From NCBI GenBank assembly GCA_030431255.1, contig JAUIJL010000005.1:29313-93312 (forward strand): a stretch of DNA of 64,000 bases, given 5' to 3'. Shown here piece after piece: positions 8,017 to 54,575 of this stretch. A program made the position numbers and the translations under genes. The notes beneath the pieces were generated by a model. The model was not told the DNA's origin. It did no database searches and saw only the letters and a list, made by a program, of their open reading frames with translations. Origin of the DNA: Thermoanaerobaculia bacterium (lineage in GTDB: Bacteria > Acidobacteriota > Thermoanaerobaculia > Multivoradales > J023). Within the stretch, counting starts at the first letter, position 1, and every line of letters starts with the position of its first letter.

Positions 8017-8163
8017 TGAGCCGCGATCATATCCCGGCTCCCAAAACCCGGCCGGTAGCGGCCCGGATCCAAGACCACAGGTTTCGATAGGATGGGGATC
8101 TGGGTCTTCCTACTGAAGTCTCAGATCTCTGCGTGCCGTGCTTCCACGGCCGATTTCGAGAGG

Positions 8164-8802
8164 ATGCCCATGTCGAATGAGCCCGACCTGCCCCACGACT
8201 CCGCGGACGACGCGATTTCGCCGGAAATCACCCGGCTGCTGCAGAGTTGGACCTCGGGTGATGCCCAAGCCGCGTCGACGCTACTGGAGAAGGTCTATCG
8301 GGATTTGCGCAAACAGGCCGCGAGCTATTTGCGCCGAGAGCGCTCCAACATCACCTACCAGCCGACGGCTCTGGTGAATGAGGTCTACATGAAGCTCAGT
8401 GAGCAGGACCGCATTCAATGGCAGAGCCGATCCCATTTCTTTGCAATCTCCGCCCAGCTCATGCGCCGGATCCTGGTGGATCATGCCCGTGCTCGCCACA
8501 GTCAAAAGCGGGGCGGAGATCAGGTCAAGGTGCCGTTCGAGCTGGCTTTGGAAAAAGCGGAGGTGCGGCCCAGCGAGCTGTTGGCCCTGCACGACGCGCT
8601 GAAAGAGCTGGCGGCCGTGGACCCCATGAAGGCCCAATTGGTGGAGCTCCGGTTTTTCGGTGGCCTGCAATTTCAAGAGATCGCCAAGGTGCTCGACGTA
8701 TCCTCTCCGACGGTCAATCGACATTGGCGGGTGGCGCGGGCATGGCTGTTCCGGCAGCTGAACGGCGAGGCGGGCTCCGAGACCGAAAATCCGCTTCCTT
8801 GA
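8164..8802 (+). CDS. ECF-type RNA polymerase sigma factor (sigma-70 family, TIGR02999-like group common in Acidobacteria/Planctomycetes/Myxococcota)
   Basis: LLQSWTSGDAQAASTLLEKVYRDLRKQAASYL...ALVNEVYMKL (region 2) and LVELRFFGGLQFQEIAKVLDVSSPTVNRHWRVARAWL (region 4 HTH). Start taken at Met25 of the ORF. Confidence 0.85.
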   Translation: MPMSNEPDLPHDSADDAISPEITRLLQSWTSGDAQAASTLLEKVYRDLRKQAASYLRRERSNITYQPTALVNEVYMKLSEQDRIQWQSRSHFFAISAQLMRRILVDHARARHSQKRGGDQVKVPFELALEKAEVRPSELLALHDALKELAAVDPMKAQLVELRFFGGLQFQEIAKVLDVSSPTVNRHWRVARAWLFRQLNGEAGSETENPLP

Positions 8803-13325: not shown

Positions 13326-14452
13326 CGATCCCCCTCGGTGGATCCCTCGACCGGTTCCACAGGCTCACCGTCGAGCAGACCTCGCTGCCCCCCTACGACC
13401 ACCCGATCGCCGGGGGACAGCTCCCCTTCGACCACCACGGAGTCGCCGATCAAGGCCCCCACCTCGAGCCGAACCTTTTCAACCCGATGGCCACCTTCGG
13501 CCGCAACGACTTTGAATAGGGCGGGTTGTCGCCCTCCGGGATTGATCACCGCTTCCACCGGCACCGTCATCGCTTGATCCGAGGTCAACGAAATCCTCAG
13601 CTCGGCGGTCGCGCCGACCACCAGACTCGGATCCGCAGCCAACCGTGCGACCACCGGGAAGAGCCTGCCGGCACCCGCGGCGGTCCGGCCCACGGAATCG
13701 ATGGTGGCGTCGAACGGCTTGGGCCCCTGATGGGGCAAGAACACAGCTGCGGAATCCCCTTCGGAGATCCGAGGCACGACGCTCTCGGGCACCTCGACCT
13801 CCACCTCCAGATCACCGTCGCCGGAGAGCACCAGGACCGGCCTGCCCGGCGACACAAATTCCCCGGGCTCAAAAAACACCTCGGTCACGGTGCCCTTGAA
13901 GGGGGCTTTGAGCCGAGTCTCGTCGCGCAATCGCTCCGCTTCCCGCAAACGGGCGCCGGCCGCGTCCTCGCCGGCCCGCAGGGCTTGCAAGCCGGCTTCC
14001 ACCTTTTCCAGCTCCTCCGCGGTCGCGGCCTTTGCGGACAAGAGCTTGCGAGCACGCTCAGCGTCCCGCTCTGCTTGGGCGCGGCGGGCCTGGAGCTCAG
14101 CCAAAGCCCCTTGAGCTCCGGCCACCGCATTCTCCACCTCTAGGCCGTCGAGCCGGGCGAGCACGGCGCCCTTCTCCACCACATCCCCGACCTCCACCGG
14201 GCGGGCGACGATGCGCCCCCCCAGCGAGAAGGCAAGGCGCGCTCGTTCGACCGCTTGGGTGACGCCGGAGAATCGCAAATCCCGCTGACTGGAAGCGGAA
14301 TCGACCCTGCCAATTTCTACCCGCTTGGTCGGCGCCTTACGGCTGTCCGAGCTCACCGCCGGCTCTGAAACTCCGGTCATGTAGACGGCGGCGATGAACG
14401 TGGTGAGACCCACCACGACGTTTCTATGTCTGTTGAGAATCGAGAGGATCAC
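13322..14452 (-). CDS. RND efflux membrane fusion protein (HlyD/AcrA-family periplasmic adaptor)
   Basis: N-terminal TM, biotin-lipoyl-like hairpin and long coiled-coil (LQARRAQAERDAERARKLL), beta-barrel and MP domains. Stop overlaps the RND start (ATGA). Confidence 0.85.
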   Translation of the reverse strand: MILSILNRHRNVVVGLTTFIAAVYMTGVSEPAVSSDSRKAPTKRVEIGRVDSASSQRDLRFSGVTQAVERARLAFSLGGRIVARPVEVGDVVEKGAVLARLDGLEVENAVAGAQGALAELQARRAQAERDAERARKLLSAKAATAEELEKVEAGLQALRAGEDAAGARLREAERLRDETRLKAPFKGTVTEVFFEPGEFVSPGRPVLVLSGDGDLEVEVEVPESVVPRISEGDSAAVFLPHQGPKPFDATIDSVGRTAAGAGRLFPVVARLAADPSLVVGATAELRISLTSDQAMTVPVEAVINPGGRQPALFKVVAAEGGHRVEKVRLEVGALIGDSVVVEGELSPGDRVVVGGQRGLLDGEPVEPVEGSTEGDR

Positions 14453-20811: not shown

Positions 20812-21894
20812 TCAAACGATGGTCAGCTTGGGACGTTTCGGCTCAGCGACCTGAGAGACCACGGCCTCGGCGACTTTTTGAAAAGCCTCGGCATAAACAC
20901 TGTCCGGCTGGGTCACCACGATCGGCTCACCGGAGTCACCGCCCTCGACGATCGCCGGATCCAGCGGAATCGCCCCGAGGAACGGTGCGCCGAGCACGTC
21001 GGCGATCCGCTTGCCTCCGCCCCGTTTGAAGATCTCGATCTCTTCCCCACAGCAGGGGCATTTGAAGCCGGACATATTCTCGATGACACCGGCGACGGGC
21101 ACGTCGACTTTGCGGAACATACCCAACCCTTTTCGCGCGTCGATCAGGGCAACATCTTGGGGGGTGGTCACGATCACCGCCGCGGAGAGGGGCACCCGCT
21201 GGGTGAGGGTGAGCTGAGCGTCACCGGTTCCCGGGGGCAAATCGACGATCATGAAGTCGAGGCGTCCCCAATTCACCTGACCGAGCATCTGCTCGATCGC
21301 CCGCATGACCATGGGTCCGCGCCAGATCACCGGGGTGTCGATATCCACCAAGAAACCCAGGGACATGATTTTGACCCCGAATTTTACGAACGGCGACAGG
21401 CTCTGGCCATCGGTCCGGGGTTTCTCGTGGATGCCGAACATCATCGGCATGGACGGGCCGTAGATGTCCGCGTCCAGCAGACCGACCCGATGTCCTTGAG
21501 CGGCGAGGGTCACCGCCAGGTTGGCGGACACCGTGGACTTGCCCACTCCGCCCTTGCCGGAGGCCACGGCGACGATATTCTCCACGCCGGGAAGCAGCTT
21601 CGGATCCGCGGTCACACCCGACTTGACCGCCTCCCGCTTGGGCGGCTCATTCACATTGAGCCTCGCTTCCGCGGCGCTGATTCCCTCCACAGCGGCGACT
21701 GCGGCCTCAGCTTCGGAGCGCACCTGTTCCGCCGCTTCAGGATTGTGGGTCGACATCTCGAGCGAGACCGTTGCCACAGCACCTTCCACCGTCACTGAGC
21801 GGACAAATCCAAAAGAGACGATATCGCGGCTCATTCCCGGATATCGAACCGCCTTGAGGGCATCCCAAACCAGCCCTTCGAGATCATTGGCCAT
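20812..21894 (-). CDS. Mrp/ApbC/NBP35-family iron-sulfur cluster carrier ATPase with N-terminal DUF59 (MIP18-like) domain
   Basis: Deviant Walker A GKGGVGKSTVSANLA; CxxC motif (FKCPCCGEE). Start taken at Met39. Confidence 0.9.
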   Translation of the reverse strand: MANDLEGLVWDALKAVRYPGMSRDIVSFGFVRSVTVEGAVATVSLEMSTHNPEAAEQVRSEAEAAVAAVEGISAAEARLNVNEPPKREAVKSGVTADPKLLPGVENIVAVASGKGGVGKSTVSANLAVTLAAQGHRVGLLDADIYGPSMPMMFGIHEKPRTDGQSLSPFVKFGVKIMSLGFLVDIDTPVIWRGPMVMRAIEQMLGQVNWGRLDFMIVDLPPGTGDAQLTLTQRVPLSAAVIVTTPQDVALIDARKGLGMFRKVDVPVAGVIENMSGFKCPCCGEEIEIFKRGGGKRIADVLGAPFLGAIPLDPAIVEGGDSGEPIVVTQPDSVYAEAFQKVAEAVVSQVAEPKRPKLTIV

Positions 21895-22128
21895 ATCTTG
21901 AACCTTTCTGGGGAATCTACATCTGCGGAGGGAACCGGCGTCGACGCCGATCGGCAAAGGATATACCAATCCACGAACCCAGCCCAAACCCTCCCTACCT
22001 GAGCTCATACCGGGTACTTTTCGAGAGTCGCAAAAGACAGACGCCCCGACGAATCGGGGCGTCTTTCAGCGCTTCTGAGCGCGCGCGGAAGGAGCACTGC
22101 GGGCGTGCCCACAGCGTTCACTAGAAGA

Positions 22129-23481
22129 CTACTGCACGGTGATGGTCTTCGTGTCGTTGGGCGAGCCGCCCCGCACCGATGCCCTCACCGTGAACGAGGT
22201 GATCCCAGCCGGAATCGTATTGGCTTGGAATGTGATCGTCACCTCCGCGATTCCGTCGGAACCAGTTGCTTTCGAGCAGCCCGTCTCCGAGCAATCAAAG
22301 CTCAACGAAGCTCCGGAGCCGTCAACGGCATTGAAGGTCACAATCTCGTTTGACACCCGGTTGCTTCGGCTATCGGTCACCAACGCCGACAACGTGATGC
22401 TGGATTCGGTAGTCCGGGTCACAACACTCGTGCTCGGAGTCAAGCTCACCGCGGCAGGAGCGTCGCGGATCTCGATCGCTGCCGTCGCGGTTTCGCTGTT
22501 GCCCACAAAGCCGCTCACACCGCCGGAGCCGGGCACATTTCCCGCCTGGAAGAAGACCGTTCTGCGGCCACCCGACACGCCCACCTGCAGGCTGGAGGTG
22601 AAATTGCCGGTGGAGGAAGTGCTCAGGGTCCCCAAGTTGCCGTCGAGGAATACTGTCTGCTGGCTCGTGATGAGATTGTTGTTCTCATCACGTATGGAGA
22701 TGCTGATCTGCGACTGCTGAAGCACGTCTACGATTCGCGGATTGGCGACCAGCTCCAACTGCGGTTTGCGAGTGGTGCCGAAAGTCACTTCCACGGTGGC
22801 GTCATCGCTCGATCCCACGGAAGCCGTCACCGTCGCGGTGCCAGACTGGCTGGAGGTCAGCGTGGTGCTCACGATACCGCCGTTATTCGTCGAAAGCTGT
22901 AGGGCGGAATCGCCGAGTGTGCCGAGGGTCGTACGCACGTTCACCGTACCCGTGGTCAACGGGGCACCGTCCGCTTGCCGAGCCGTCATGGTGATGGTGG
23001 AGGTTCCGTTGAGCGCTACGTCCGACGGATTCGCATCCAAAGTGATGGTCGGGTTATCTTCGGGATTCAGTCCGATACGTACGTCAGTGGTCGCCGAGGC
23101 GCCCTCTCCTCCGCTGGTCAGGGCCACAGTAATCGTCGCCGTCCCCAACCTCCCGTCGCTCTCCAGCTGTGCCGTGGCTCTGCCGGCCTCACCCACCTCG
23201 ACGATATTGCCCGGAACCAAGGCACCGTTCGTTTGACGGACCATGATCCTGCCAATGGTCGTCGTGATGGTCAGCTGAGTGCCCGGGTTGAGGGGATTGC
23301 CGTCCGGGCGAAAACCCGTGATCGAAATCGTGGAAGAGCCGTCGAGATCGATCTGGCTCGGGCTGGCGGACACGGTCAAGGTGCTGCCCGTGGGAGCAAT
23401 GGGATTATCGGCGCTGTCGCAACCGAACAGATAAGCGCCCAAAAGCAGAAGCGCGGTCAGAATGGCCAGTCGTCTCTTCAT
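22129..23481 (-). CDS. Secreted lipoprotein with four bacterial Ig-like (Big_1, invasin/intimin-type) repeats
   Basis: Lipobox LFGC after signal peptide. About 100-aa repeats with alternating S/T-rich beta-strands (TLTVSASPSQIDLDGSSTISIT...). Confidence 0.7.
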   Translation of the reverse strand: MKRRLAILTALLLLGAYLFGCDSADNPIAPTGSTLTVSASPSQIDLDGSSTISITGFRPDGNPLNPGTQLTITTTIGRIMVRQTNGALVPGNIVEVGEAGRATAQLESDGRLGTATITVALTSGGEGASATTDVRIGLNPEDNPTITLDANPSDVALNGTSTITMTARQADGAPLTTGTVNVRTTLGTLGDSALQLSTNNGGIVSTTLTSSQSGTATVTASVGSSDDATVEVTFGTTRKPQLELVANPRIVDVLQQSQISISIRDENNNLITSQQTVFLDGNLGTLSTSSTGNFTSSLQVGVSGGRRTVFFQAGNVPGSGGVSGFVGNSETATAAIEIRDAPAAVSLTPSTSVVTRTTESSITLSALVTDSRSNRVSNEIVTFNAVDGSGASLSFDCSETGCSKATGSDGIAEVTITFQANTIPAGITSFTVRASVRGGSPNDTKTITVQ

Positions 23482-23505
23482 GGATAGATCTTTACCTGAT
23501 TGCTG

Positions 23506-23565
23506 GAAACTGATTGCCGGTAACCCGGTTAATTCCCGGAGCCTGGTTGATTGCCGGAATCCGGT
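23506..23565. promoter_or_regulatory. Three copies of a TGATTGC(C/T)GG motif in the upstream region of the Big_1 lipoprotein gene
   Basis: ctgattgctgg / ctgattgccgg / ttgattgccgg read directly within 60 bp. Confidence 0.3.
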
Positions 23566-23747
23566 AGCTGGGAAGGCGGATGGTCGGGAGGTCTTTTCGA
23601 CGCTTCGAAGGCAGTATACGGATAGAGCCGAGCAAGCGTCTAGCCGATCCAGAAACGATCGGCGATTTCCCTTTCACCTGCACTCTCAACACGGCGAAGG
23701 GCGGTCCCGAAAGACCGCCCTTCTTCAGATTTCTCTAAACCGAACAC

Positions 23748-25763
23748 TCATGGAGTAATCGTGAACAGCGCGTCCCCCCCACAAGATTCCCCATCCTCGT
23801 TCGTACACCTAACGTAAATGGTGAAGGTATCGAAACTGGTGAAGGTATGGGTCCCGAAGAAGGTGTCCAGGTCTTGAGCAGGCGCTAGACCCGGACCTTC
23901 ATTGTCAAACCACCAAGCGATCGAGCTTTCGACAATCGCAGCATCCCCTCCCAGGGGCGCAACCGTGAATGTGTAGGGTCCCAAAGAGCCGGCCTGAGCG
24001 GTGGGAAGTCCCAAAGAGACACCGACCAAGCCGCCGCCACCGCCGCCGCCACCGCCACCACCGCCACCGGCGGTACACGCATCTCCCGTCGGGAAATAAC
24101 CAAAAGCGTTGCTGAGTGTATTGCTACATCCTGTATTCAGGTTGGTTACCTGCACGTTGACGAAGGCTACACCGGCAGCGCACTCCGCAGTCGTGAAACC
24201 ACCAGTATAGGCAGGCACTGTAACGGTAATTTCTTCGCCGAAGGCCCCGCCAATGGATTGGATACCGGCCGGCAAACCGTTGAAGGTCACACGGATCGGT
24301 GGATCAAAGCCCACGGCATAACCGCGACCGACACCGACGATGGTCCGTATGTCGCCCGCAACACCCGTGTTCTCGCCAAGGAAGCCAAGAACCTGAGGAC
24401 GCACGGGCCGATACGTAAATGCCGGCCCGGTCGTCGTTTCGTTGGTCTCAAGGTTGACCACCCGCGTGGTACCGGATTGATTAGAGCAACCGATGTTCGC
24501 GCCGACAGTGCGGAAGAGGATCTCCGTACCCGAGACTGAGACCACTTGCTGGGCCAATGCGCCAGCTTCTACCGCCACCGGCTCCTCGAAGCCTTGGCCG
24601 AATATGGTGACCTCGTCACCGCCGAGGTACTCACCCTCGTTGGGACGGATCGACGAGATAAACATCTGGCCGCCGGCTCCGCCGTATTGGAAGGCACCCG
24701 ACAAGGTGGCCTGTTGACCGCTGGTGGGATCCCTTACGATCAGGCTGACCCGACTGTTGGCATTCGGTGCATTCGGACCCGTAGCCGACGGTGTGATCAC
24801 TTCCATCCGGGTCGGCGTGATCGACAGCACCGTCGCCTCGATCAACGGACCGTTGGTGAAGTAGACCTGAGCCTCGTTACCGAAGCCCTCACCGCGAACC
24901 GTAACCTGGGTGCCACCTTCGTTCGGACCCTGGGTCGGGCTGATGGAAATCAGCTTGAGGGTCGTGGTGCCCTGGGTCGAGCGGGTATACGTGAAGGCGC
25001 TCGCCAAGGAGTCCGTGGCGGTCGGATTGCCGTTCTCATCAAATCCATTCTCAACCGTCACGGTTGCGGCGGCATTCTGACCGGAAGCCAAGTTGATCGC
25101 CGGTGTGCGCGCGGTGATTCGGGTGCTGCTCTGAACATTCGTATTCTCCGCCACCAAGGTGCCGAAGGAGCCGGTGAGCAGGACGCGAGCCGGGGAGACA
25201 AATCCGGAGCCGGAAATGATCAGGGTGGTGCCACCGGAAGGCGGACCCACGCTCGGGCTCACAGAAGACACCTGGAACGGAGCGGCCTGAACGTCGATCA
25301 TCTGGATTCGGGCGGAGCCGAAGCTCGACTCGATTTGGGCCCGAACGATAATCGTGGTGTCGAAAGCGACGGTTCCGGTCACCAGGGTCGCCCGGGATTG
25401 CCCCGCCTCATCGAAAACGATCGGCACGGAATTACCGGCCTGACCATCGTTGGTGGTCAAGGTGCCGTTGGTCGTGCTCAGTAGAGCCGTGGTGCCGGGT
25501 GCAACGATCTGATTGTTGTCCGAGCGACGAGCCGAGACGAGGATTTGCGCGGTGCCCGAGCCGGCGTTCAGATCGAATTCGGCCGGGTTGGCCGTGACCG
25601 AAATCGTCCACGTCGAATTGTTGGTGTTGTCGGTCACCGGAGGGGGATTCCTCGCCTCAACCGGTCCCGTCACATCGTCCGAGTCGCAGGCTCCCAAGAA
25701 GAGAGCCAAGATCATCACGATCCCGGATAGAAGGTTGATGACTGGATTCTTTTTGCTACGCAT
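23748..25763 (-). CDS. Secreted lipoprotein with Ig-like and three IPT/TIG domains and an internal Gly13 linker
   Basis: Lipobox LGAC. TIG-like units (VSSVSPSVGPPSGGTTLIISGSGF, ISISPTQGPNEGGTQVTVRGEGF, ISSIRPNEGEYLGGDEVTIFGQGF). GGGGGGGGGGGGG encoded at about 24030-24070. Confidence 0.7.
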   Translation of the reverse strand: MRSKKNPVINLLSGIVMILALFLGACDSDDVTGPVEARNPPPVTDNTNNSTWTISVTANPAEFDLNAGSGTAQILVSARRSDNNQIVAPGTTALLSTTNGTLTTNDGQAGNSVPIVFDEAGQSRATLVTGTVAFDTTIIVRAQIESSFGSARIQMIDVQAAPFQVSSVSPSVGPPSGGTTLIISGSGFVSPARVLLTGSFGTLVAENTNVQSSTRITARTPAINLASGQNAAATVTVENGFDENGNPTATDSLASAFTYTRSTQGTTTLKLISISPTQGPNEGGTQVTVRGEGFGNEAQVYFTNGPLIEATVLSITPTRMEVITPSATGPNAPNANSRVSLIVRDPTSGQQATLSGAFQYGGAGGQMFISSIRPNEGEYLGGDEVTIFGQGFEEPVAVEAGALAQQVVSVSGTEILFRTVGANIGCSNQSGTTRVVNLETNETTTGPAFTYRPVRPQVLGFLGENTGVAGDIRTIVGVGRGYAVGFDPPIRVTFNGLPAGIQSIGGAFGEEITVTVPAYTGGFTTAECAAGVAFVNVQVTNLNTGCSNTLSNAFGYFPTGDACTAGGGGGGGGGGGGGLVGVSLGLPTAQAGSLGPYTFTVAPLGGDAAIVESSIAWWFDNEGPGLAPAQDLDTFFGTHTFTSFDTFTIYVRCTNEDGESCGGDALFTITP

Positions 25764-25810
25764 TTCGGGTCTCCGTCTCTCGTTTCGCTTGTCCATGGCC
25801 GGCCGTAGCA

Positions 25811-26371
25811 TCAGAAGGTCGTCGTCAGAGAAGGCACGAACTCGAAGGTTTGAGCGCGCGGAACACTGGACACGTCCACACCGGCCAGCGTTTGCCCAAA
25901 GACCCGCATTTGTACATTCAATTTGATGATCGAGGCACCGGTTTCGGAGTCCACCGCACCGTTCTGGAACAGCAGGTCCGCCAACGGCTCACCACGGAGC
26001 TGCTCAACGGTCATGACCGGCAGACCGGTGTAGCTGAGCTGTCCACCGGCAGGCACCGTTCCAACCACGTTGTATACAAAGGGCAGAGGAACGCGAGTAC
26101 CCGTATCCACTCGGGTGTAGGTGAGCTCAATGGTGTTCAGCTGAACATCCATCAGTGATGAGGAGCCACCACCGGGTCTGGAGATCACACTGTTGATGGT
26201 CACCTGATCGAGGGCCAACAAGTCGGTGTCGTTGACGCCTACCCGGAAGGTGGAGTCATCGAACTCAACCTCGAGCAAGACCCCGCCCGTGTCCGTTTCA
26301 CCGACTCGTTCGGTGCAACCGGACAAGATCAGAAACAACGTGATTGCAATCAGTTGAAGTGCTGCTTTCAT
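25811..26371 (-). CDS. Small lipoprotein of unknown function, immediately downstream of pilQ
   Basis: Signal peptide with lipobox LSGC; no recognisable domain. Confidence 0.5.
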   Translation of the reverse strand: MKAALQLIAITLFLILSGCTERVGETDTGGVLLEVEFDDSTFRVGVNDTDLLALDQVTINSVISRPGGGSSSLMDVQLNTIELTYTRVDTGTRVPLPFVYNVVGTVPAGGQLSYTGLPVMTVEQLRGEPLADLLFQNGAVDSETGASIIKLNVQMRVFGQTLAGVDVSSVPRAQTFEFVPSLTTTF

Positions 26372-26405
26372 GGACTTTCCCCTGGAGCTTTCCACGTCTT
26401 CGGGA

Positions 26406-29036
26406 TCAGAATTGGATGATTCGAGGCGTGATGAAGATCATCAGCTCGTTGTTGTCGTCACTACGATTGCGGTTCTTAAACAGGTGCCCGAGAATCGGCA
26501 CCCTCGCCAGGCCGGGGACCCGGTCTTGGCTTTGGTTCGACGACACCTCGTAGATACCGCCGATGACCGCGGTCGCACCATCGCGCACACGAACTTTGGT
26601 TCTCGCGTCTCGGGTGGAGATCGGAGCACCGCTGGCGCCTACGAAGAGCAAGCCGAGCTGCGGAATTCGCTTGGCGACGTTGATGTTGAGCACCACGGTT
26701 CCGTCCGCCGCGACCTGTGGGGTGACCCGCAAGCGCAGGGTGGCGTTGACGAATTGAACCGAAACGGTTCGATCCGACACGGTTTGGATCGGGATCTGAA
26801 CGCCACTTTGGATAGAAGCAGAGTTGTTGTTGAGGGTCGTGATCCGCGGCGCCGAAACGATGTTGATCAGACCTTCGGCTTCCGCCGCCACCAGCTGGGC
26901 ATTCAACCGGAACGTGTCCAGAATGTTGCCCATGGCGAAATTCAAGAAGCCGGTGGAGCCACCCGTGATCAAGCCGACGCCACCGTCACCGCTGACGTTA
27001 TTCGGGAATTGAAGACCCGTGGTGTTGCCGTTCTGATTGTTGGCGGTGAAGTTGAAGCCCCATGCAATACCCAGAGATCGGCTGAAGCTCTTGGTCGCCT
27101 CGACGATCCGCGCCTCGATAGTCACCTGTGGCGACGGGGTATCCAAGCTGTCGATCACCGCCAGCACCGTGTCGATGTTGTCCGGCAGCTCGCGGATGAT
27201 CAGGGTGTTGGTCCGGGAGTCGACCTGGACCGATCCCCGGCGGCTGAGGATGTTGCCGGAGCGGCTGCGCAGCAGCCGGGCGGTGGTTCCGGCGCGCGCG
27301 TAGCTCAGGCTGCGCATCACCGTCCGCAAGGGAATGGACTTTTGACGGGCCCGGCGCAGCCGACGCTGCTCTTCAGCTTCCTGACGCAGCTTCTTGGTCG
27401 GAGCGATGCGGACGATGGTGCCGTCGATATCCATGCCCAAGTTGTTGATCTTCAGGATCTGCTCCATCGCCTGATCCCAGGGCACGCCCTTGAGCTCAAC
27501 GGTCACCGTGCCGCGAACGCCGGGTTGGATGACGAAGTTGAGATCGCTGATCTTGGCGAACGAGCGAAGGGTCTCCACCAAGTCCGCATTCTTCAGCGAC
27601 ATGCTGATCGGATCACCGACGTATTCCCGCTCCTGGCGGCTCACCACCAGGGGGCCGAAGGATTCGAGCAATCGTTCCTGCTTGGTGCGCCCCTGGTCGT
27701 CGAGCTCTACATTCTGAGCTTCGAAGAGGGAGACGTCCCCCGCTACCCTGCCGTTCCCTGAAATCTCGATCGGCGGGGGCTCGTAGGCGTCCGCGGCAGG
27801 CGTAGGCTCGGCAGAAGGCGACGGTGTCCATTCGGCGACCGCGGTGGTCTCCTGGGGAGCCACCACAGGCTCGTAGACATCCTCTACCTCGGGCTGGGCC
27901 TCGAAAGAATCGACGCTACCCGCGCCCGAAGCACCGGTATCGTCCATCCCAGCAACGACCTCGACCGGCTCGGGCTCCGGTTCCATCTCCTGGGTCATGG
28001 GCTCTGCTAGGGTCTCGGCGCTCGCCATCTCAGCAGCGGCGCTGTCACCGAAGCTCACCAGCATGCCATCGGCGGTACGGCTGATGCTCGGCACGGAGAA
28101 GTTGTGTAGGTCGAAAACCACTCGCGAGACCGGCTCGGGGCGCGGCTTAAACTGACCGACCCGGATTTGGTCGACGTCGGAGCTGCCGACGCGAACTGTG
28201 GAGCTGGCTCCGGTGTTGACGACACCGGTCAGATCCACCACAAAGCGGTCCGGATTCTCGAGGCGGAAAGTCGAGTAGGTGAAGTCACCATCACCGCTGA
28301 TCTGCACCACGGTTGAGCTGCCGGCGCTCAGCACCTCGACACCGTAGAGCTGGGAGGCGGTGACGCCTTGGGGCGAAGGTCCGAGCTGCGGAGCCTCGGG
28401 GGTTCCATAGGTCTGCGGCACTGCGGCAGAAGCGACTGGTGGCGGCGCTGCCACTGGATCGGCCGCCATGGGCTCGGAATCGGCCACCAAGGTTTCGACC
28501 TCGGGCTCGTCGATGGGCTCATAAGCTAGGGTCACGTCCTGAGCGCTGTCGATGGGCAGCAGCTCCAGACGCAAGATGTTGCCGTCGCCGGTGAGGGAGT
28601 GCTCACTCGCGGAGCTGGTACGAACCACGAATCGGGTCAGCGGACGCTCGGCGTCGTCCAGACGCTCGATCTCGATGTCGCTGACCAAGCCATCGGCGGT
28701 GGCTTTAGGGCTCACTGCGGCGCCTGCCAGGCTGTTGGGTAGCTCGACGACAAGGTCACCGTCGGGATTCCTGAAGCTGGTCCAGACCAGCGGGCGATCG
28801 GCAACCAATTCAATCGACGCGCTCCGGCCGTCGTCGTCGACGCGAAGATCGTCGATATTCGCCGGGGTCCGAACCTGGGCCGTAACCCCCGCGTTCGACG
28901 ACTGCGCCCCTGACTGCGCGCTGACGTCAGCTCGCTGCCGCTTGGCAGAAGAGCACCCAACATGAATGATCAGCAGAGCCATCGCGGCCGCCATGGCCAA
29001 ACGTTGACTGCTTCTCTTCTCCTTGCTCTTGCCCAT
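26406..29036 (-). CDS. pilQ: Type IV pilus secretin PilQ, with N-terminal AMIN domains
   Basis: C-terminal secretin domain (NIVSAPRITTLNNNSASIQSG...VPGLARVPILGHLFKN...ELMIFITPRII). N0/N1 domains and AMIN-like beta-sandwiches. Acidic, proline-rich linker. Confidence 0.9.
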   Translation of the reverse strand: MGKSKEKRSSQRLAMAAAMALLIIHVGCSSAKRQRADVSAQSGAQSSNAGVTAQVRTPANIDDLRVDDDGRSASIELVADRPLVWTSFRNPDGDLVVELPNSLAGAAVSPKATADGLVSDIEIERLDDAERPLTRFVVRTSSASEHSLTGDGNILRLELLPIDSAQDVTLAYEPIDEPEVETLVADSEPMAADPVAAPPPVASAAVPQTYGTPEAPQLGPSPQGVTASQLYGVEVLSAGSSTVVQISGDGDFTYSTFRLENPDRFVVDLTGVVNTGASSTVRVGSSDVDQIRVGQFKPRPEPVSRVVFDLHNFSVPSISRTADGMLVSFGDSAAAEMASAETLAEPMTQEMEPEPEPVEVVAGMDDTGASGAGSVDSFEAQPEVEDVYEPVVAPQETTAVAEWTPSPSAEPTPAADAYEPPPIEISGNGRVAGDVSLFEAQNVELDDQGRTKQERLLESFGPLVVSRQEREYVGDPISMSLKNADLVETLRSFAKISDLNFVIQPGVRGTVTVELKGVPWDQAMEQILKINNLGMDIDGTIVRIAPTKKLRQEAEEQRRLRRARQKSIPLRTVMRSLSYARAGTTARLLRSRSGNILSRRGSVQVDSRTNTLIIRELPDNIDTVLAVIDSLDTPSPQVTIEARIVEATKSFSRSLGIAWGFNFTANNQNGNTTGLQFPNNVSGDGGVGLITGGSTGFLNFAMGNILDTFRLNAQLVAAEAEGLINIVSAPRITTLNNNSASIQSGVQIPIQTVSDRTVSVQFVNATLRLRVTPQVAADGTVVLNINVAKRIPQLGLLFVGASGAPISTRDARTKVRVRDGATAVIGGIYEVSSNQSQDRVPGLARVPILGHLFKNRNRSDDNNELMIFITPRIIQF

Positions 29037-29188
29037 GTCCAAATCGCCTCCGACGGATTGCCTAGAACGGATTTGCTCTAAGGTCGGTCCGCTTGGGTTT
29101 CCCATTCGATCGATTCCTCAGTCCTATTCGGACGGTTCCTACCGTCCCTTCTAAGGACGGTTTCCACCGTCTCCTCTACGGACGGTAA

Positions 29189-29836
29189 TTACCGTCGCGA
29201 CGGGTACAGCCTCTTGACCACCTCGCGGAAGGGCTTCAAAGCAGTGGGGTCGTTGACACTCTGCTTGAAGACCACCTCACCTAGGGTGATTCTCACCACG
29301 TCGCCGTCCCAGAGCTCATCTCCGGGACGCAACAGAAAGCTCGTTCGTTCACTGGCGGACTTAACTTGTGCAACCGGCCCGTCATCCAAAATGAAAATGC
29401 CTTCGATCCGAAGCTCGGCGATCAACAAACCCGGAATGCCGTCCGGTCTCTCCCGCCGACCATCGTTCTTTCGTCGCTTTCTCAACAACGAGCGGAAAGG
29501 ATCTCGTCGGGCTCCGGGATCGTAGGTGAAGGCGTCCGGTGAGGACAGCACCTCTTCATCCATCGCCAGGAGGTCGTCCACAGCGCCGAAATCGATGGCT
29601 TCGCCATCCACAACCGCACCGTCGGAGTCACCGTCCTCTTCGTCCGAAATCTCCGCGTCTGTATCGTCTACGTCGACGAGCTCCGCATCCGAATCGTCAT
29701 CGGCAGCCGAGAAGTCGTCGTCTTGGGCCGCAGCCAACGGTACCCAAAACAGACATAGAAGCAGGAATGCGAAAACGGACGAAGCCACCCGGAAAGGGGC
29801 AAGCTCGACCGTCCGAGAAGGCAGATGGGTGCTCAC
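29189..29836 (-). CDS. pilP: Type IV pilus assembly lipoprotein PilP
   Basis: Position in the pilMNOPQ order. Signal peptide, acidic linker, C-terminal PilP beta-domain (DPFRSLL...). Confidence 0.7.
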   Translation of the reverse strand: MSTHLPSRTVELAPFRVASSVFAFLLLCLFWVPLAAAQDDDFSAADDDSDAELVDVDDTDAEISDEEDGDSDGAVVDGEAIDFGAVDDLLAMDEEVLSSPDAFTYDPGARRDPFRSLLRKRRKNDGRRERPDGIPGLLIAELRIEGIFILDDGPVAQVKSASERTSFLLRPGDELWDGDVVRITLGEVVFKQSVNDPTALKPFREVVKRLYPSRR

Positions 29837-30435
29837 GCCTCATCCTCCTCGTTCTCGTTTCCCTGGTCGCGATCAATGTAGAGGAACGTCTTCATCGTGA
29901 ATGTCGCGGAGATGGTTTGGTTACGCCGCTTTTTCCCACGTTTGGCCTTGATGCTCAGCTTGTCGACGTTGATGATGCGCGAGAATCGGGAGACTCGATC
30001 GAAGAAGAGCGCCAGGTTGTGGTACGAGCCGGTGAGCCGGACTTGAATGGGCCACTCGTAGTAGAACTCGCGCTCCGACCGACGCCGAGGAGTGAAGCTG
30101 AGCAAGGTGAAGTCTCCCTGCTCCGTCAATGTGCGGATCCGGCGCAGCAGATCTTGGGTCTTGCGCTGAGCCGGCAACACCTTGAGCAGCTTGTCGAGCT
30201 CCAGCTGCAGGCGGCTGACCTCTTCTCGGAATTGAGGAAGGCTCTTCTGTGCCGTGCGACCCTCGTTGATCTTCTTCTCGAGCTTGGTGAGATTCTTCTT
30301 CTTCTTGACGATTTCCTTTTTCAAGGAAGTCACGGCCGTCGCATGGATGAGAAACACCAAGATCCCGGTGATCACCACGGCAACCGCCGCTGAGATGTAC
30401 CAAGGCTTACCTTCTAGACCTGTTTGTACCGCCAT
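29833..30435 (-). CDS. pilO: Type IV pilus assembly protein PilO
   Basis: Single N-terminal TM, coiled-coil, C-terminal ferredoxin-like domain. Operon position. Confidence 0.75.
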   Translation of the reverse strand: MAVQTGLEGKPWYISAAVAVVITGILVFLIHATAVTSLKKEIVKKKKNLTKLEKKINEGRTAQKSLPQFREEVSRLQLELDKLLKVLPAQRKTQDLLRRIRTLTEQGDFTLLSFTPRRRSEREFYYEWPIQVRLTGSYHNLALFFDRVSRFSRIINVDKLSIKAKRGKKRRNQTISATFTMKTFLYIDRDQGNENEEDEA

Positions 30436-30452
30436 TTCTTCTCTCCTAGATC

Positions 30453-31061
30453 TCAGGTCTCGTCCGCTTGGGTGGCGTCTTCACCAGAAGGAGGTGGCTT
30501 GGGAAGCTGGAACCGGAAGTTGATTTGGAAGGTGTAGGTATTCCTTTTCGCCCTTCGCACATTGCGGGTATCCGGCTCCTTGAACTCGGGCACCAAGCTG
30601 AGGTTCTCGATGAACGTGGCGATGGCATTGGTATTCAGAGCTTGACCCGAGAGTCGGACCCGCTTACCTCTCACGTTCATGGATTTCAGCCAGACCAGAT
30701 CGGGCAACGCCCGAGACACCCTATCCATGAGATGAACCGGCCCGCGCCGTTTCGCCGTCAGCTCGTTGATCAGATCGATTTTGGTGTTCAGTCGGCGACG
30801 TTTCCGTTTGAAGACTCGAACCTCTTTGAGAATCGGCTTGAGCTCTTTGACCTCCGCGCGAGCCCGCCTGATATCCGACTGCAGACTCTTGAGCTCGGAG
30901 TTGACGACCAACCACCAGCACAGGCCGACCAACAGGCCGACGACCACTCCGGCAGCGAGGATATAGATCGAGGGATCCTGTTCCCCGATATTGATCCGGG
31001 ATTTGGCTTTCCGGGCGACAACCGGCCGGCGGCCTTCGGAAATGAGATTAATACGGATCAT
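30453..31061 (-). CDS. pilN: Type IV pilus assembly protein PilN
   Basis: N-terminal MIRINL PilN signature, single TM, coiled-coil. Confidence 0.8.
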   Translation of the reverse strand: MIRINLISEGRRPVVARKAKSRINIGEQDPSIYILAAGVVVGLLVGLCWWLVVNSELKSLQSDIRRARAEVKELKPILKEVRVFKRKRRRLNTKIDLINELTAKRRGPVHLMDRVSRALPDLVWLKSMNVRGKRVRLSGQALNTNAIATFIENLSLVPEFKEPDTRNVRRAKRNTYTFQINFRFQLPKPPPSGEDATQADET

Positions 31062-31064
31062 GGT

Positions 31065-32156
31065 TTAGTCACCTACCCGGCGGATCGCCAATCCCACCGA
31101 CACCGCCAGCATCGGCGCGATGGCTTCTAAATAGTCGGGATCGAAATCTTTGTAGCTCACTTTGCGCAGGGGATTCAGCAGCTCTGTCGGAACACCGAAT
31201 CGCTCTCGGAGCACTTCGAGAAGATTCGCCGTCAATGCGCAGCCCCCGGAAAGCACCAACTCATCGACCGCGCCCTCACTCGAGGTGGCGCTGAAGAAGT
31301 CGAAGGTCTTTTGGATCTCGTTGGCCATTTCCTCAGAGACGTTGTCGAGCACCCGACGAGCGTCGGCCGCTGAATAGGAGCCGACGGTCTCACCGCGCTT
31401 GAGCAGCTCGGCTTGGTCGAAGGAGAGGTTGAACTCGCGCTGAAGGGCTTCGGTGAATTGATTGCCACCGAAGGAGATATCGCGCCAGAAGACGCTGCTT
31501 CCGCGAACCACCATGTTGATGTTGGTGACGCCCGCACCCATGTTGATCAGCGCGACGTTTTTCAGCGGATCGAGATCGTAATTGAGCTCGTAGGCGTTCT
31601 GGATGGCGAAGGCGTCGATATCGACGATGACCGGGGACTTGCCGCTCTGGGAGATGACCGACACGTAGTCGTTGACTTTCTCTCGCTTCACGGCCACCAG
31701 CAGCACTTCCATCTCTTCCTGGCCGTGCTCGGCCTCGCCAAGGGTCACATAGTCGAGCCGGACGTCGTTGATGTCGAAGGGAATATGCTGCTCGGCTTCC
31801 CATTGAATCGACTCGTCGAGCTCGTCGGGCGACATCTGGGGAAGCTCGATCTTTTTGATAATCACCGAGTGACCCGAGACCGACGTCGCGAAGTTGGCGC
31901 TCTTGACCTTGGCGGTTTCGTTCAGCTTCTGGATCGCATCGACCACCAATGAGGAGTCCATGATCGAGCCATCGACGATCGCCTCGGGAGACAGCGGCTC
32001 AATTCCAATGCGTTGCAGCTGGTATTGCCCGCCTTTCTTCTCTTTCAGCTCGATGAGCTTAATCGTAGCGCTGCCGATGTCTAGACCGACGACTCCTTTG
32101 GAGCGAGCGAAAAACACTGATCGCGTGCCTCTTTGGTCGTTGGGCGGCGGCCCCAT
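31065..32156 (-). CDS. pilM: Type IV pilus assembly ATPase-fold protein PilM (actin/FtsA-like)
   Basis: VGLDIGSATIKLIEL phosphate-1 motif, FtsA-like fold. Start taken at Met31. AT-rich promoter-like region upstream (32250-32460). Confidence 0.85.
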   Translation of the reverse strand: MGPPPNDQRGTRSVFFARSKGVVGLDIGSATIKLIELKEKKGGQYQLQRIGIEPLSPEAIVDGSIMDSSLVVDAIQKLNETAKVKSANFATSVSGHSVIIKKIELPQMSPDELDESIQWEAEQHIPFDINDVRLDYVTLGEAEHGQEEMEVLLVAVKREKVNDYVSVISQSGKSPVIVDIDAFAIQNAYELNYDLDPLKNVALINMGAGVTNINMVVRGSSVFWRDISFGGNQFTEALQREFNLSFDQAELLKRGETVGSYSAADARRVLDNVSEEMANEIQKTFDFFSATSSEGAVDELVLSGGCALTANLLEVLRERFGVPTELLNPLRKVSYKDFDPDYLEAIAPMLAVSVGLAIRRVGD

Positions 32157-32466
32157 GCCGTGCCCGAAAAGACTGTATTGATGCCAACTTAACTCAATTC
32201 CTTCAAGCGTTTTGGGAGCGTAGCAGTCGGTCTCGCGCGGTGTCAAGATCGACTCATTCGCTTTTTGCTATATCCGGACACCTTTTGACGTAGCAATTTG
32301 CTCGAAAGCTCGGTTCCGGGCACCACATAAGGTATGACACCATTGCCACACTACAATATACAGTAGCCTGGCGACAAATTGGCTCACCGGCTCGGCGAGG
32401 CTGCCATTTTGATCAAGAAAACTTCGAGCTGGGAGCACCGACCCCCTTGGATGGGGCCCGTAATCG

Positions 32467-34695
32467 TCACTTCCTCCTGGACGAGGATCGCACGGAGCTG
32501 CGCATCTCGCGCATGACTCGGATGACCCCCTCCAGGGACTCGAAAGCCGTGCACATGCGGTCCAGGTGCTTGCGGTTGCGCACCTCGACCACGAAGGTGA
32601 TCAACCCTCGTCCGGTCTCGGTATCGGCTTCGAATTGGCGGATGTTGCTTCCTTCCTTGGCGATGACTTCCGTCAGGCGCGCCAACATCCCCTTCTGGTC
32701 TTCGGTTTCCAGGGTCAAGGAAACCGGGAAGAACTGCCCCGAGCTGGGCTGTCGTGCCCACTCCACCTCGATCAGGCGGCTTTCATCGAATGACAAGGTC
32801 TTGAGATTGGGGCATTCCAAAGAATGGACGGTGATGCCCCGACCACGGGTCACATAGCCCATCAAGTCGTCGCCGGGCACCGGACGGCAGCATTTGGCCA
32901 GGCTGGCCATCAGGTCGCCATGGCCCTTGATGATCAGCGGACCTGCCCCGGTCACCCGATCGACGGCCCGGCGAATGGGTCCCGGCGGCTCGGGAGCGGG
33001 TGGGGTTTCCAGTTGTTGCTCGTCGAGCAACGCATCCAGAACTTGGCGATAGGAGACCCGCCCATAAGCCAGCCGATAGTAGAGATCGTCGAGCTTGGAG
33101 AGCCCTTCCCGCTGCAGATATTCCTCGAGCTTCGGGCCTGCCAGGACCTTCTTCGGTTGGAGACGCAGCTTGCGCAGCTCCCTCTCCATGATCTTTCGAC
33201 CGATGGCCTGGGCCTCTTCCTTTTGCTGGGTGTTGAGCCAGTGCCGAATTTTGCTGCGGGCCCGCGAGGTGGCGACGATGTTGAGCCAGTCGCGGCTCGG
33301 CCGACGTTGGGGAGAAGTGATGATCTCCACCATATCGCCGTTGGCTAGGGGAGTTTTGAGCGGCACCAACTTGCCGTTCACCCTCGCGCCGGTGCATTGG
33401 TGCCCGACATCGGTGTGGATGTGATAGGCAAAATCGAGCGGCGTGGCGCCTCGAGGGAAGCTGCTGACATCGCCTTTGGGGCTGAATACATACACTTCGT
33501 CCGGGTACAGATCTATCTTGAGCGCGGACAAGAACTCTCGTGGGTCTTTGACCTCTTTTTGCCATTCCAACAGCTGACGCAGCCAGAGGATATTCCGATC
33601 ATTGGAGCCTTGGCTCGAGCCCGCGCTCTTATATTGCCAATGGGCGGCGATCCCCTCTTCGGCGATCGTATCCATTTCCCGGGTTCGGATTTGGACCTCG
33701 AACGGCTGCCCTTTGCCCCCCACCACCGTGGTGTGCAGGGATTGATAGAGATTCGGCTTGGGCATCGCGATGTAATCTTTAAATCGGCCCGGAATCGGAC
33801 GCCAATTCTGATGCACCACTCCGAAGGCGGCGTAAGTATCCTTCAGGTCGTGGGTAATGATGCGAAACGCCAAGAAATCATAGAGCTGAGAAATATCGAT
33901 GCCTTGGCGTTGGAGCTTTCGAAAAATAGAGTAGTAGCGCTTGACCCGATAGCTGATTTCGGCATCGATATCGGCGGCGTCGAGGGCGTCTTTCAGGCGA
34001 CGTGCAATGCGTTGAAGCAGCCCGCGGGCGCTGCGCATCTTGTCGCGAACTTTGGTGTCGAGCTCGCCGAATTGACGCGGATAGCGAAAATAAAAAGCCA
34101 GGTCCTCGAGATCCCCCTGCACCCGCGACATACCGAGACGGGAGGCGATCGGCGAGTAGATCTCGAGGGTCTCACCGGCGATTCTGCGCTTTGCCTCCGG
34201 AGACATATGCTCCAAGGTCATCATATTGTGCAACCGGTCCGCCAGCTTGACGAGAATGACCCGCAAGTCCCGAGCGGAAGCCAAGATCATCTTGCGAAAG
34301 GTCTCGGCCTGAAGCTCATCCCGACGCACATACTCCGTCTTGCTGATTTTCGTCACGCCGTCCACCAGCTCGGCCACATCCTTGCCGAATTCCTTTTCGA
34401 GCACCGACTTGGTGGTCAGAGTGTCCTCCAGCACGTCGTGCAACAAGCCGACAGCGACACAAGTCTCATCAAACTTCAAATCAGCCAACAAATAGGCCAC
34501 GTAGATCGGATGGGTGACGTAAGGCTCGCCGGATTTACGCTTTTGATCCCGATGTTTTTCCTCGGTGAAATCGTAAACACTCTTGAGGAAAACTTCGTCA
34601 TACCCACGTCCATGGTGATTCAGCCGCTCGAAAATGGTTTCGAGATCGACCTTGCGCCGCGGACGCACCGGGGGTTTGGGGAGCTTCTTCGTCAT
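32467..34695 (-). CDS. relA/spoT: Bifunctional (p)ppGpp synthetase/hydrolase RelA/SpoT (Rel)
   Basis: HD hydrolase motif HDVLEDT. RelA_SpoT synthetase domain, TGS and ACT C-terminal domains. 742 aa. Confidence 0.9.
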   Translation of the reverse strand: MTKKLPKPPVRPRRKVDLETIFERLNHHGRGYDEVFLKSVYDFTEEKHRDQKRKSGEPYVTHPIYVAYLLADLKFDETCVAVGLLHDVLEDTLTTKSVLEKEFGKDVAELVDGVTKISKTEYVRRDELQAETFRKMILASARDLRVILVKLADRLHNMMTLEHMSPEAKRRIAGETLEIYSPIASRLGMSRVQGDLEDLAFYFRYPRQFGELDTKVRDKMRSARGLLQRIARRLKDALDAADIDAEISYRVKRYYSIFRKLQRQGIDISQLYDFLAFRIITHDLKDTYAAFGVVHQNWRPIPGRFKDYIAMPKPNLYQSLHTTVVGGKGQPFEVQIRTREMDTIAEEGIAAHWQYKSAGSSQGSNDRNILWLRQLLEWQKEVKDPREFLSALKIDLYPDEVYVFSPKGDVSSFPRGATPLDFAYHIHTDVGHQCTGARVNGKLVPLKTPLANGDMVEIITSPQRRPSRDWLNIVATSRARSKIRHWLNTQQKEEAQAIGRKIMERELRKLRLQPKKVLAGPKLEEYLQREGLSKLDDLYYRLAYGRVSYRQVLDALLDEQQLETPPAPEPPGPIRRAVDRVTGAGPLIIKGHGDLMASLAKCCRPVPGDDLMGYVTRGRGITVHSLECPNLKTLSFDESRLIEVEWARQPSSGQFFPVSLTLETEDQKGMLARLTEVIAKEGSNIRQFEADTETGRGLITFVVEVRNRKHLDRMCTAFESLEGVIRVMREMRSSVRSSSRRK

Positions 34696-34722: not shown

Positions 34723-35382
34723 TCAGCCTCCGGCTTCGTCGGCGGCTTCGTCGACGGCCGGGGCGCTTTCGACGACCTCCAGCTCTCCAAGCACACTGAA
34801 GAGCTGTTCCGTCAAGCGCGCTTTAGAATCGTCCCCGGCTGGATAGTTGTAAACCATTCGCAGCTCGCGATCGCCTTTCGGATGGACGATGAAGATCGCC
34901 GTTTCTTCCAAAGTCCGACCGCCCTCGGTGTACTGCCCCCGGGAATAGAAGGCGGTGCCCAGCTGGGAGCCCAGCTCCCTTTGACCTTTGAACACACCGT
35001 CAGGGCGGGCTTCGAGATCCGCCTTATGGCGCTCGACCGCGGCGACCAGGTTGATGCCACCGGTTTCGGCTTCGGACTCGTGAATTCTGAGGGTGCCTTC
35101 GACTTGGGGATCGGCGGGCACCAGCTCGATGACCGAGCCCTCGTTGGAGCTCAGCTTGAAGAACGCGGGAACGTCCGCGACCGCCATGCCGAGCTCCGCA
35201 TTCTCCACCCGCTCGCCCTTCGCTGCTGCCTCCTCCGTCTGGGGCTCCTCGGTGGGAGCACAAGCCGACAAAGCGACGACGACCCATAAGATGGAGCTGA
35301 TTCTGGCCAGGGTGACGAGACTCGATCGGAAGGACGTAGACCGGACGGATGTAATCTTAAAGGACATCGAGAAAGAGAACAT
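34723..35382 (-). CDS. Hypothetical secreted (lipo)protein
   Basis: Hydrophobic N-terminus with Cys (ALSACAP). No recognisable domain. Exact start uncertain. Confidence 0.45.
   Translation of the reverse strand: MFSFSMSFKITSVRSTSFRSSLVTLARISSILWVVVALSACAPTEEPQTEEAAAKGERVENAELGMAVADVPAFFKLSSNEGSVIELVPADPQVEGTLRIHESEAETGGINLVAAVERHKADLEARPDGVFKGQRELGSQLGTAFYSRGQYTEGGRTLEETAIFIVHPKGDRELRMVYNYPAGDDSKARLTEQLFSVLGELEVVESAPAVDEAADEAGG

Positions 35383-52278: not shown

Positions 52279-54571
<2,293 letters not shown>

Positions 54572-54575
<4 letters not shown>

Follow-up and report, generated by a model that had tools for sequence, protein, structure and literature searches.

A candidate secretin-associated lipoprotein family encoded directly after pilQ in the type IVa pilus operon of Thermoanaerobaculia and Holophagae

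The organization of a type IVa pilus (T4aP) secretin locus was studied in a 64,000-nucleotide stretch of DNA (the window) from a Thermoanaerobaculia bacterium (assembly GCA_030431255.1, contig JAUIJL010000005.1, positions 29,313 to 93,312 of the forward strand). The pilMNOPQ genes are followed on the same strand by three lipoprotein genes. The first encodes a 186-residue lipoprotein, labelled SLP here, the second a TIG-domain lipoprotein (gene 2), and the third a Big_1 lipoprotein (gene 3). The gene content and synteny of this locus, its operon signals, the fold class of SLP and a co-evolution signal tying SLP to the secretin domain of PilQ are shown by the data, and the placement of SLP and gene 2 after pilQ is not random. 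The best explanation overall, to which a probability of about one half is given, is that SLP is an accessory lipoprotein docked on the secretin, that gene 2 encodes a co-expressed immunoglobulin (Ig)-like stalk, and that gene 3 is a separate unit.

The conservation of the arrangement was established in a locus survey in which one genome was taken per species. A 13-sequence subset of the SLP alignment was used as the query, an SLP relative was found in 142 species, and the best 80 loci were taken with 10-kb flanks, the window proteins being placed on them by tblastn. In each of the 79 informative loci, that is, those in which the contig reached upstream, pilQ was located directly before SLP, and this was the case across Thermoanaerobaculia and Holophagae. 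The order relA-pilM-N-O-P-Q-SLP was complete wherever the contig was long enough, down to 29% SLP identity, and the Big_1/TIG lipoprotein encoded by gene 2 came next after SLP in both classes. The gap between pilQ and SLP ranged from -4 to about +26 bp, or to about +35 bp at most, while that between SLP and gene 2 was about 0-70 bp and mostly 7-35 bp, the latter junction often showing an overlapping stop/start or a Shine-Dalgarno sequence that overlapped the SLP stop codon. The initial annotation had argued that lipoprotein genes lying beside the secretin operon were not random neighbours, and the synteny over two classes, together with the co-evolution described below, bears this out. No description of a pilMNOPQ-SLP-gene 2 module was found in the literature searched.

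The Holophagales-type loci (L054-L080) continue after gene 2, at about 12-18 kb, with a cytoplasmic tetratricopeptide repeat (TPR) protein, accB-accC, thiE and aroK; L019 and L034 were noted alongside them. Some versions of this TPR protein end in a C-terminal part resembling a Roadblock/LC7 domain, and the presence of aroK near pilQ recalls the proteobacterial pilQ-aroK linkage.

The relationship between SLP and the other products of the locus was further studied using pairwise distance matrices for RelA, PilM, PilN, PilO, PilP, two regions of PilQ, and SLP across 50 genomes, with partial correlations being used to remove the species signal. SLP and the PilQ secretin domain formed the strongest pair in every design. 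The partial r was 0.55-0.70 when RelA was controlled with or without PilM, for all taxa or for Thermoanaerobaculia only, and a value of 0.51 (0.53 on ranks) was obtained after controlling RelA, PilM, PilN, PilO, PilP and the N0N1 region of PilQ, with p=0.001 throughout by partial Mantel permutation. The signal was comparable to that observed for the positive control, the known PilN-PilO heterodimer, which gave a partial r of 0.47-0.67. For SLP against PilP, r was about 0-0.15. The TIG region of gene 2 correlated with SLP (0.42) and just at 0.12 with the secretin domain, beside a value of 0.57 for SLP and the secretin domain, and the pattern of correlation running from the secretin domain through SLP to gene 2 is suggestive. 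Linkage alone is no easy explanation, because neither gene 2, located 0.6 kb from the end of pilQ, nor PilP, encoded just upstream of pilQ, tracks the secretin domain.

These data bear on the possibility that all three lipoproteins have general functions in the envelope or at the cell surface, for example as adhesins or tethers, ride on the pilQ transcript and play no part in the pilus. Genes 2 and 3 do encode ordinary modular Big_1/TIG/PKD proteins that evolve faster (median identity 34%) than SLP (43%) or PilN (42%), Holophagales can dispense with gene 3, which has a promoter of its own, genes for a pilin or a pilus ATPase were not found nearby in the window, and aroK is still found a few genes downstream in many loci, indicating that old synteny persists here. 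However, SLP is not a housekeeping gene, it was present only directly after pilQ in the 80 loci examined across two classes, and its divergence follows the secretin domain specifically and not PilP. That the pilus has no use for any of the three proteins is considered unlikely.

In the window, eight open reading frames (ORFs) run head to tail on the minus strand, in the order pilM-N-O-P-Q, SLP, gene 2 and gene 3, and are bounded by relA/spoT (32467-34695) and mrp/apbC (20812-22008). The pilM gene (31065-32117; Pfam PilM_2, 1e-79) has a likely GTG start at 32117 after AAAGAGG, with the open frame reaching 32246, and is followed on the minus strand by pilN (30453-31061; Pfam PilN, 1.6e-15) and pilO (29833-30435; Pfam PilO, 1.3e-30). 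The pilP gene (29189-29836, minus strand), which overlaps pilO by 4 bp, is divergent; its product lacks a lipobox and found no match in a Pfam scan. When a profile of 14 orthologues was compared with the PDB, the three best matches were all PilP chains, namely Myxococcus xanthus PilP 3jc8 (E=1e-3) followed by Pseudomonas aeruginosa PilP 2y4x and 2lc4. The order and content of the genes are thus those of a T4aP alignment/secretin operon pilMNOPQ, on the basis of Pfam and NCBIfam matches and, for PilP, of the PDB profile match only. Pfam scans of all other large ORFs in the 64-kb window identified no pilin, PilB, PilT or PilC, and the class III prepilin motif was not found in any of the six reading frames. 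The earlier statement that the window holds no pilin, pilB or pilT was thereby confirmed, and no pilus-related genes beyond this locus were found in the window by either approach.

The pilQ gene (26406-29036, minus strand) encodes two AMIN domains, N0/STN, Secretin_N and a secretin domain (Pfam Secretin, 3e-44), and its product scored above the NCBIfam TIGR02515 cutoff (371 bits against 284). The open frame extends to 29105, and the gene call in the public protein collection is 876 residues long while the longer ORF is 899. In the 899-residue ORF, the match to Pfam Secretin spans residues 740-898 and so reaches the end of the protein, indicating that there is no C-terminal S-domain. At the N terminus (28950-29036, minus strand) a lipoprotein-type signal was identified, IIHVGC followed by SS, which has an unusual residue at -3 and for which lipidation is predicted. 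Most orthologues (L001-L080) have a lipobox with a conserved SS or AS after it. The canonical boxes LLGC, AVAC or AAGC are present in many of the orthologues, and others have signal peptidase I-type signals. Given the lipobox in most orthologues, the secretin may get to the outer membrane as a lipoprotein itself. One subclade (e.g. L014-L020) has signal peptidase I-type PilQ signals and a tendency to short gene 2 proteins (268-425 residues).

Downstream of pilQ, the products of SLP, gene 2 and gene 3 each have a signal peptide and a lipobox (LSGC, LGAC and LFGC, respectively), in agreement with the initial annotation, which had placed three lipoproteins after pilQ on the same strand. The gaps of 35, 48 and 267 bp given there read as 34 bp between pilQ and SLP, 47 bp or a TGATG overlap between SLP and gene 2, and 266 bp between gene 2 and gene 3. 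The first two gaps are so short that they leave no space for a promoter or terminator, and no convincing terminator was found in either of them when the window was scanned. The sites that the scan did locate were weak and inside coding sequence, and they were no commoner than in shuffled sequence.

The SLP gene lies at 25811-26371 on the minus strand. The cysteine of its lipoprotein signal peptide and lipobox, MKAALQLIAITLFLILSGC, is kept in at least 90% of the aligned homologues, which also share many invariant polar residues. The conserved residues of SLP include R87, D89, R93, N137, D141 and E143. In a collection of 5.8 billion proteins, 133 homologues of ~180-200 residues each were found, all of them unnamed or 'hypothetical' and none with a Pfam domain; the named sources were Acidobacteriota, Thermoanaerobaculia and Holophagales metagenome-assembled genomes. 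An exhaustive search of 1.84 billion cluster representatives with the SLP profile returned 307 clusters, which were stand-alone proteins of the same size (~185 residues). Searches of Pfam, NCBIfam (June 2026) and the PDB, the last by sequence and profile, gave no relative or model for SLP. Judged by these searches, SLP is a new small protein family.

An AlphaFold2 model of SLP, prepared from a 29-sequence alignment, revealed a single β-sandwich with a mean predicted local distance difference test score (pLDDT) of 86.9 and a predicted template modelling score (pTM) of 0.71. The sandwich begins after a tether of ~10 residues from the lipidated cysteine and is all-β save for two short helical turns. 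Comparison with the PDB using Foldseek gave generic Ig-like sandwiches (TRAP-β, ApaG, arrestin, Calx-β and a fimbrial chaperone) with template modelling (TM) scores of <=0.55, and no pilotin, PilP, TsaP or TssJ was present among the 50 matches listed. The initial annotation had suggested examining the 186-residue lipoprotein for a TPR or PilF-like pilotin fold; the β-sandwich model rules such a pilotin out at the level of the fold, and no TPR match was found in Pfam.

Other identities for SLP were tried and rejected. Comparison with a local PilP profile by hhalign gave a probability of 1.5% for a diverged PilP, and a diverged Big_1 domain was likewise not supported when SLP was compared with the Big_1-like domains encoded by gene 2 and gene 3. 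As regards a pilotin of the type II or type III secretion system (T2SS, T3SS), none of the PulS/OutS, AspS, MxiM and ExsB folds was among the 50 matches listed for SLP, and PilQ has no S-domain for such a protein to bind. TsaP combines a peptidoglycan-binding LysM domain with FlgT-like domains, and SLP lacked a LysM domain and had no Pfam match at E <=0.01.

One interpretation of these data takes SLP to be a true pilotin. It would then be a lipoprotein of the outer membrane that chaperones PilQ monomers for a time, targeting them or assisting their multimerization before it departs, and it would replace PilF, PilW or Tgl without the use of TPRs. SLP is a small lipoprotein, coded right after the secretin gene and coupled to it, and it co-evolves with the secretin domain, which carries the β-lip proposed as the site of T4aP pilotins (PMC10653833). 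A new fold is no disqualification, since the pilotins of one system bear no structural relation to those of another (PMC3542185). However, the known T4aP pilotins are six-TPR superhelices (PMC10653833), whereas the SLP model is almost entirely β. In addition, pilotins are missing from the 50 fold matches listed, PilQ stops at its secretin domain, and the PilQ of most genomes has a lipobox of its own. In liposecretins of the HxcQ type, such a lipobox makes a pilotin unnecessary. A pilotin role as strictly defined as this is rather improbable, and the reading of SLP as a secretin-docked accessory lipoprotein is preferred.

Gene 2 (23748-25811, minus strand) starts either at the ATG within the TGATG at the SLP stop codon (25811), which is the start used in the public gene call, or at an ATG at 25763. 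In its product, a linker rich in proline leads to a Big_1/Invasin_D3-like N domain, after which come ~4 TIG repeats, a run of glycines and, at the C-terminal end, a PKD-like domain, with Pfam TIG being matched in three stretches (4e-23; 81.6 bits against a gathering cutoff of 20.9). The orthologues range from 268 to 1582 residues, TIG, PKD and Cys-rich DUF4215 modules having been gained and lost, while the mature N terminus, C-[SA]-x-[DE]-[SA]-P, and the Big_1-like base are conserved across both classes. Sequence and profile comparison with the PDB gave only plexin IPT domains and poly-Gly artefacts, and a search with the N-terminal region returned a single match. The TIG repeats are divided from the PKD-like domain by 13 consecutive glycine codons at ~24033-24071 (minus strand), and since the tblastn matches of gene 2 usually end just before this run, the part beyond it appears to be lineage-variable. 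A fusion of SLP and gene 2 in loci L014, L018 and L020 was considered and rejected, a TAG stop being present between them.

It could be that gene 2, and perhaps gene 3, encodes cargo that the pilus machine sends to the cell surface through PilQ, with SLP being a secretin-bound adaptor. The order of the correlations from the secretin domain to SLP and on to gene 2 is consistent with this, as are the motif conserved over both classes straight after the lipidated cysteine of gene 2 and the extracellular domain types (PKD, DUF4215) in its orthologues. Surface lipoproteins that depend on a T2SS, for example PulA, are known, as is secretion dependent on type IV pili. However, all of these points are indirect, the surface exposure of the gene 2 product being read from its modules only, and the conserved motif might just as well be a signal for sorting, by Lol or otherwise. 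We also know of no T4aP system that exports or displays a lipoprotein. Cargo of this kind is a distinctly doubtful proposition, and little credence is likewise given to its fuller form, in which SLP would be a new secretin adaptor and the T4aP machine, with its secretin lipid-anchored, would place its own operon-encoded gene 2 lipoprotein at or through the PilQ pore.

The initial annotation had the pil operon running into all three lipoprotein genes. This holds for SLP and gene 2 and does not hold for gene 3, for which independent signals of termination and initiation were found. A hairpin with a 12-bp GC-rich stem and a UUCG loop (23696-23723, minus strand) is located 25 nt past the gene 2 stop codon, and the 58-nt segment that holds it has a minimum free energy of -29.1 kcal/mol (z -4.7). 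This hairpin is likely to be the operon terminator or a 3' stabiliser, and almost every locus has its equivalent after gene 2, with energies of about -20 to -44 kcal/mol. Upstream of gene 3, a promoter-like element, CTAGACG-N18-TATACT, was identified on the minus strand (23613-23642 from TAGACG to TATACT). Taken together, the hairpin and this element argue for an operon composed of pilMNOPQ, SLP and gene 2, with gene 3 forming a separate unit. A strong intrinsic terminator with an 11-bp stem containing eight GC pairs and a following T-run (22039-22064, minus strand) lies after gene 3.

Of the 53 Thermoanaerobaculia-type loci, 40 had a single copy of the exact sequence TAGACG-N18-TATACT, which in every case was located just 5' of gene 3, and all 41 exact matches in 1.37 Mb of sequence (the 80 loci plus the window) were located before this gene. 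A general promoter consensus for the lineage was considered and rejected, as relaxing both hexamers gave only three extra matches. The conserved boxes are CTAGACG and TnCGTATACT, in the arrangement CTAGACG-N14-TnCGTATACT (23613-23656 in the window, minus strand), with 15 invariant columns in 39 sequences; the element is invariant over ~40 species although the gene 3 proteins share only about 34% identity. In approximately two-thirds of the loci, the -35-like box is inside the loop of the upstream hairpin and the spacer makes up the 3' arm of that hairpin. The stem co-varies, with 68% of cells paired compared to 57% after shuffling and 41-55% in slid controls, and with 77 double changes against 40. 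In most loci only 8-14 nt separate TATACT from the gene 3 ATG, which implies a leaderless or nearly leaderless mRNA, while in the window and in its closest relative (L001) this near ATG has been lost and the leader is ~131 nt long. TAGACG...CGTATA forms an imperfect inverted repeat and could for this reason be the site for a specific sigma factor or regulator. In the 131-nt leader, CCGGCAATCA and CCAGCAATCAG are repeated (23495-23565, minus strand), and since these repeats are absent from the closest relative they are probably a recent insertion. An Rfam scan of the spacer between gene 2 and gene 3 gave no match.

Gene 3 itself (22129-23481, minus strand) encodes a 450-residue lipoprotein with Big_1/Invasin_D3 repeats (Pfam Invasin_D3 7e-17, 62.3 bits, cutoff 33; Big_1 4e-14, 52.9 bits, cutoff 34.9). 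Comparison of its N domain with the gene 2 N domain by hhalign gave a probability of 98%, identifying the two domains, by profile comparison, as homologous and as paralogues. No solved relative was found for gene 3 in the PDB by sequence or profile. The gene was present only in the Thermoanaerobaculia-type loci (L001-L053) and absent from the Holophagales-type loci; as regards a break in synteny and independent transcription signals, therefore, gene 3 differs from SLP and gene 2, for which neither was found.

These observations can be drawn together in a model in which the T4aP operon pilMNOPQ would be lengthened by two co-transcribed, translationally coupled lipoprotein genes. SLP would be produced in step with PilQ, and its short tether would keep it near the outer membrane. 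We infer that SLP makes physical contact with PilQ, docking on the outside of the membrane-embedded barrel part formed by the secretin domain, where it would act as a stable accessory or stabilising subunit or as an assembly factor. SLP would in this way be a non-TPR functional counterpart of the pilotin-type or secretin-associated lipoproteins. The gene 2 product would be a lipid-anchored Ig-like chain whose Big_1-like base is conserved and whose TIG/PKD stalk varies, made together with SLP and probably kept beside the secretin via SLP, using its conserved N-terminal motif and Big_1-like base. The stalk would most likely be a cell-surface projection or adhesin, a surface location being probable because TIG, PKD and DUF4215 modules are typical of extracellular proteins. 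Gene 3 would be a duplicated gene 2 base that became a separate, often leaderless unit with its own strongly conserved promoter. Roles in adhesion, as a pilotin-like factor or as a structural partner are conceivable for any of the three lipoproteins.

Several points weigh against a secretin-docked SLP with a co-expressed stalk. Co-transcription kept downstream of pilQ is no proof of a role in the pilus, and in proteobacteria aroK-aroB follow pilQ and have no such role. For lipoproteins of Acidobacteriota such as these, a location in the inner membrane is also conceivable. PilQ, whose own lipidation is predicted in the majority of the genomes, may need no targeting factor. The mirror-tree correlations may stem from chromosomal linkage or from shared rate shifts among outer-membrane proteins, and the highly variable length of gene 2 is ill-suited to a machine part of fixed stoichiometry.

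Elsewhere in the window, a predicted 219-residue lipoprotein with the lipobox LSAC is encoded between relA and a gamma-glutamyltranspeptidase gene (34723-35382, minus strand), and no Pfam or NCBIfam family was matched by it. A 1491-residue protein with FG-GAP repeats and HYR, VWA, SdrD_B and DUF1349 domains (1734-6209, plus strand) looks like a large surface or adhesion protein, and an extracytoplasmic function (ECF) sigma factor gene is located near it (8092-8802). A 1473-residue ORF (8904-13325, minus strand), which an HlyD-type adaptor gene (13322-14452) precedes, encodes a complete AcrB-type resistance-nodulation-division (RND) pump (ACR_tran, residues 9-998) together with a TolC-like OEP domain (1285-1463), and is either an unusual fusion of pump and outer-membrane factor or an artefact of the assembly or of a frameshift. 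A C39-peptidase ABC exporter with HlyD-type adaptors (50176-55660, plus strand) and a class II lanthipeptide synthetase of the LanM type (DUF4135 and LANC_like; 61011-63968, minus strand) could possibly form a lanthipeptide locus. A cobalamin riboswitch (Rfam RF00174, 50 bits; 59661-59925, minus strand) was found upstream of a TonB-dependent receptor gene (57734-59632).

To our knowledge, nearly all the accessory factors described for type IV pilus secretins come from proteobacteria and Myxococcus, where they are TPR pilotins, TsaP, FimV and the Slk plugs. The present data suggest that a part of the Acidobacteriota that is widespread and dominated by uncultured members, represented here by at least 142 species genomes, has fixed a different solution. 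In it, a probably lipidated secretin is combined with a new β-sandwich lipoprotein, whose evolution follows that of the pore domain, and with a lipoprotein that has an Ig-like stalk. Should SLP bind PilQ, it would represent a new structural class of secretin partner and a handle on secretin assembly or decoration outside model organisms. Two families now annotated as 'hypothetical' or 'IPT/TIG domain protein' would gain names and a testable role.

The T4aP pilotins PilF of P. aeruginosa, PilW of Neisseria and Tgl of M. xanthus are six-TPR, all-α superhelices and outer-membrane lipoproteins dedicated to PilQ, with a proposed action on the β-lip of the secretin domain (PMC10653833). SLP resembles them in being a lipoprotein, in its coupling to pilQ and in its co-evolution with the secretin domain; unlike them, it is a β-sandwich of ~160 residues that is coded immediately after pilQ. 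The genes for PilF, PilW and Tgl are usually located away from pilQ. The pilotins of the T2SS and T3SS (PulS/OutS, AspS, MxiM and ExsB/YscW) are small lipoproteins whose diverse structures are the outcome of convergent evolution (PMC3542185). Their target is a C-terminal S-domain that is missing from the window PilQ, and none of them is among the 50 fold matches listed for SLP. TsaP and SlkA/SlkB are periplasmic accessory proteins that bind the PilQ channel and are not core parts of the machine (PMC13392014). Unlike SLP, these are not lipoproteins and are not coded beside pilQ, and TsaP contains LysM whereas SLP is without any Pfam domain.

A lipoprotein signal peptide is predicted for the window PilQ and most of its orthologues, as in the HxcQ-type liposecretins, while some orthologues have ordinary signal peptides; HxcQ is itself a T2SS secretin. 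The Big_1/TIG adhesins of the intimin/invasin type share TIG, Big_1 and Invasin_D3 with genes 2 and 3 above the Pfam thresholds, but the products of genes 2 and 3 are lipid-anchored and have neither an inverse-autotransporter barrel nor a C-type lectin tip. In Akkermansia, the Amuc_1098-1100 cluster is a further case in which a type IV pilus secretin cluster has been extended in one lineage, here by outer-membrane 'pili-like' proteins. The window PilQ gave a weak match to the Amuc_1098 secretin model, whereas SLP, gene 2 and gene 3 were matched by none of the NCBIfam models for this cluster, and the folds differ. In Tad (type IVc) loci, the cpaC/rcpA secretin gene is followed in the same operon by cpaD/rcpB and the gene for the TadD lipoprotein. 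A gene for an envelope lipoprotein after the secretin gene is thus common to the Tad and SLP loci, which belong to different pilus classes, and the Pfam CpaD model gave no match to SLP. A T4aP secretin operon with accessory lipoproteins is known in kind, and what is new here is the lineage-specific variant and the SLP family.

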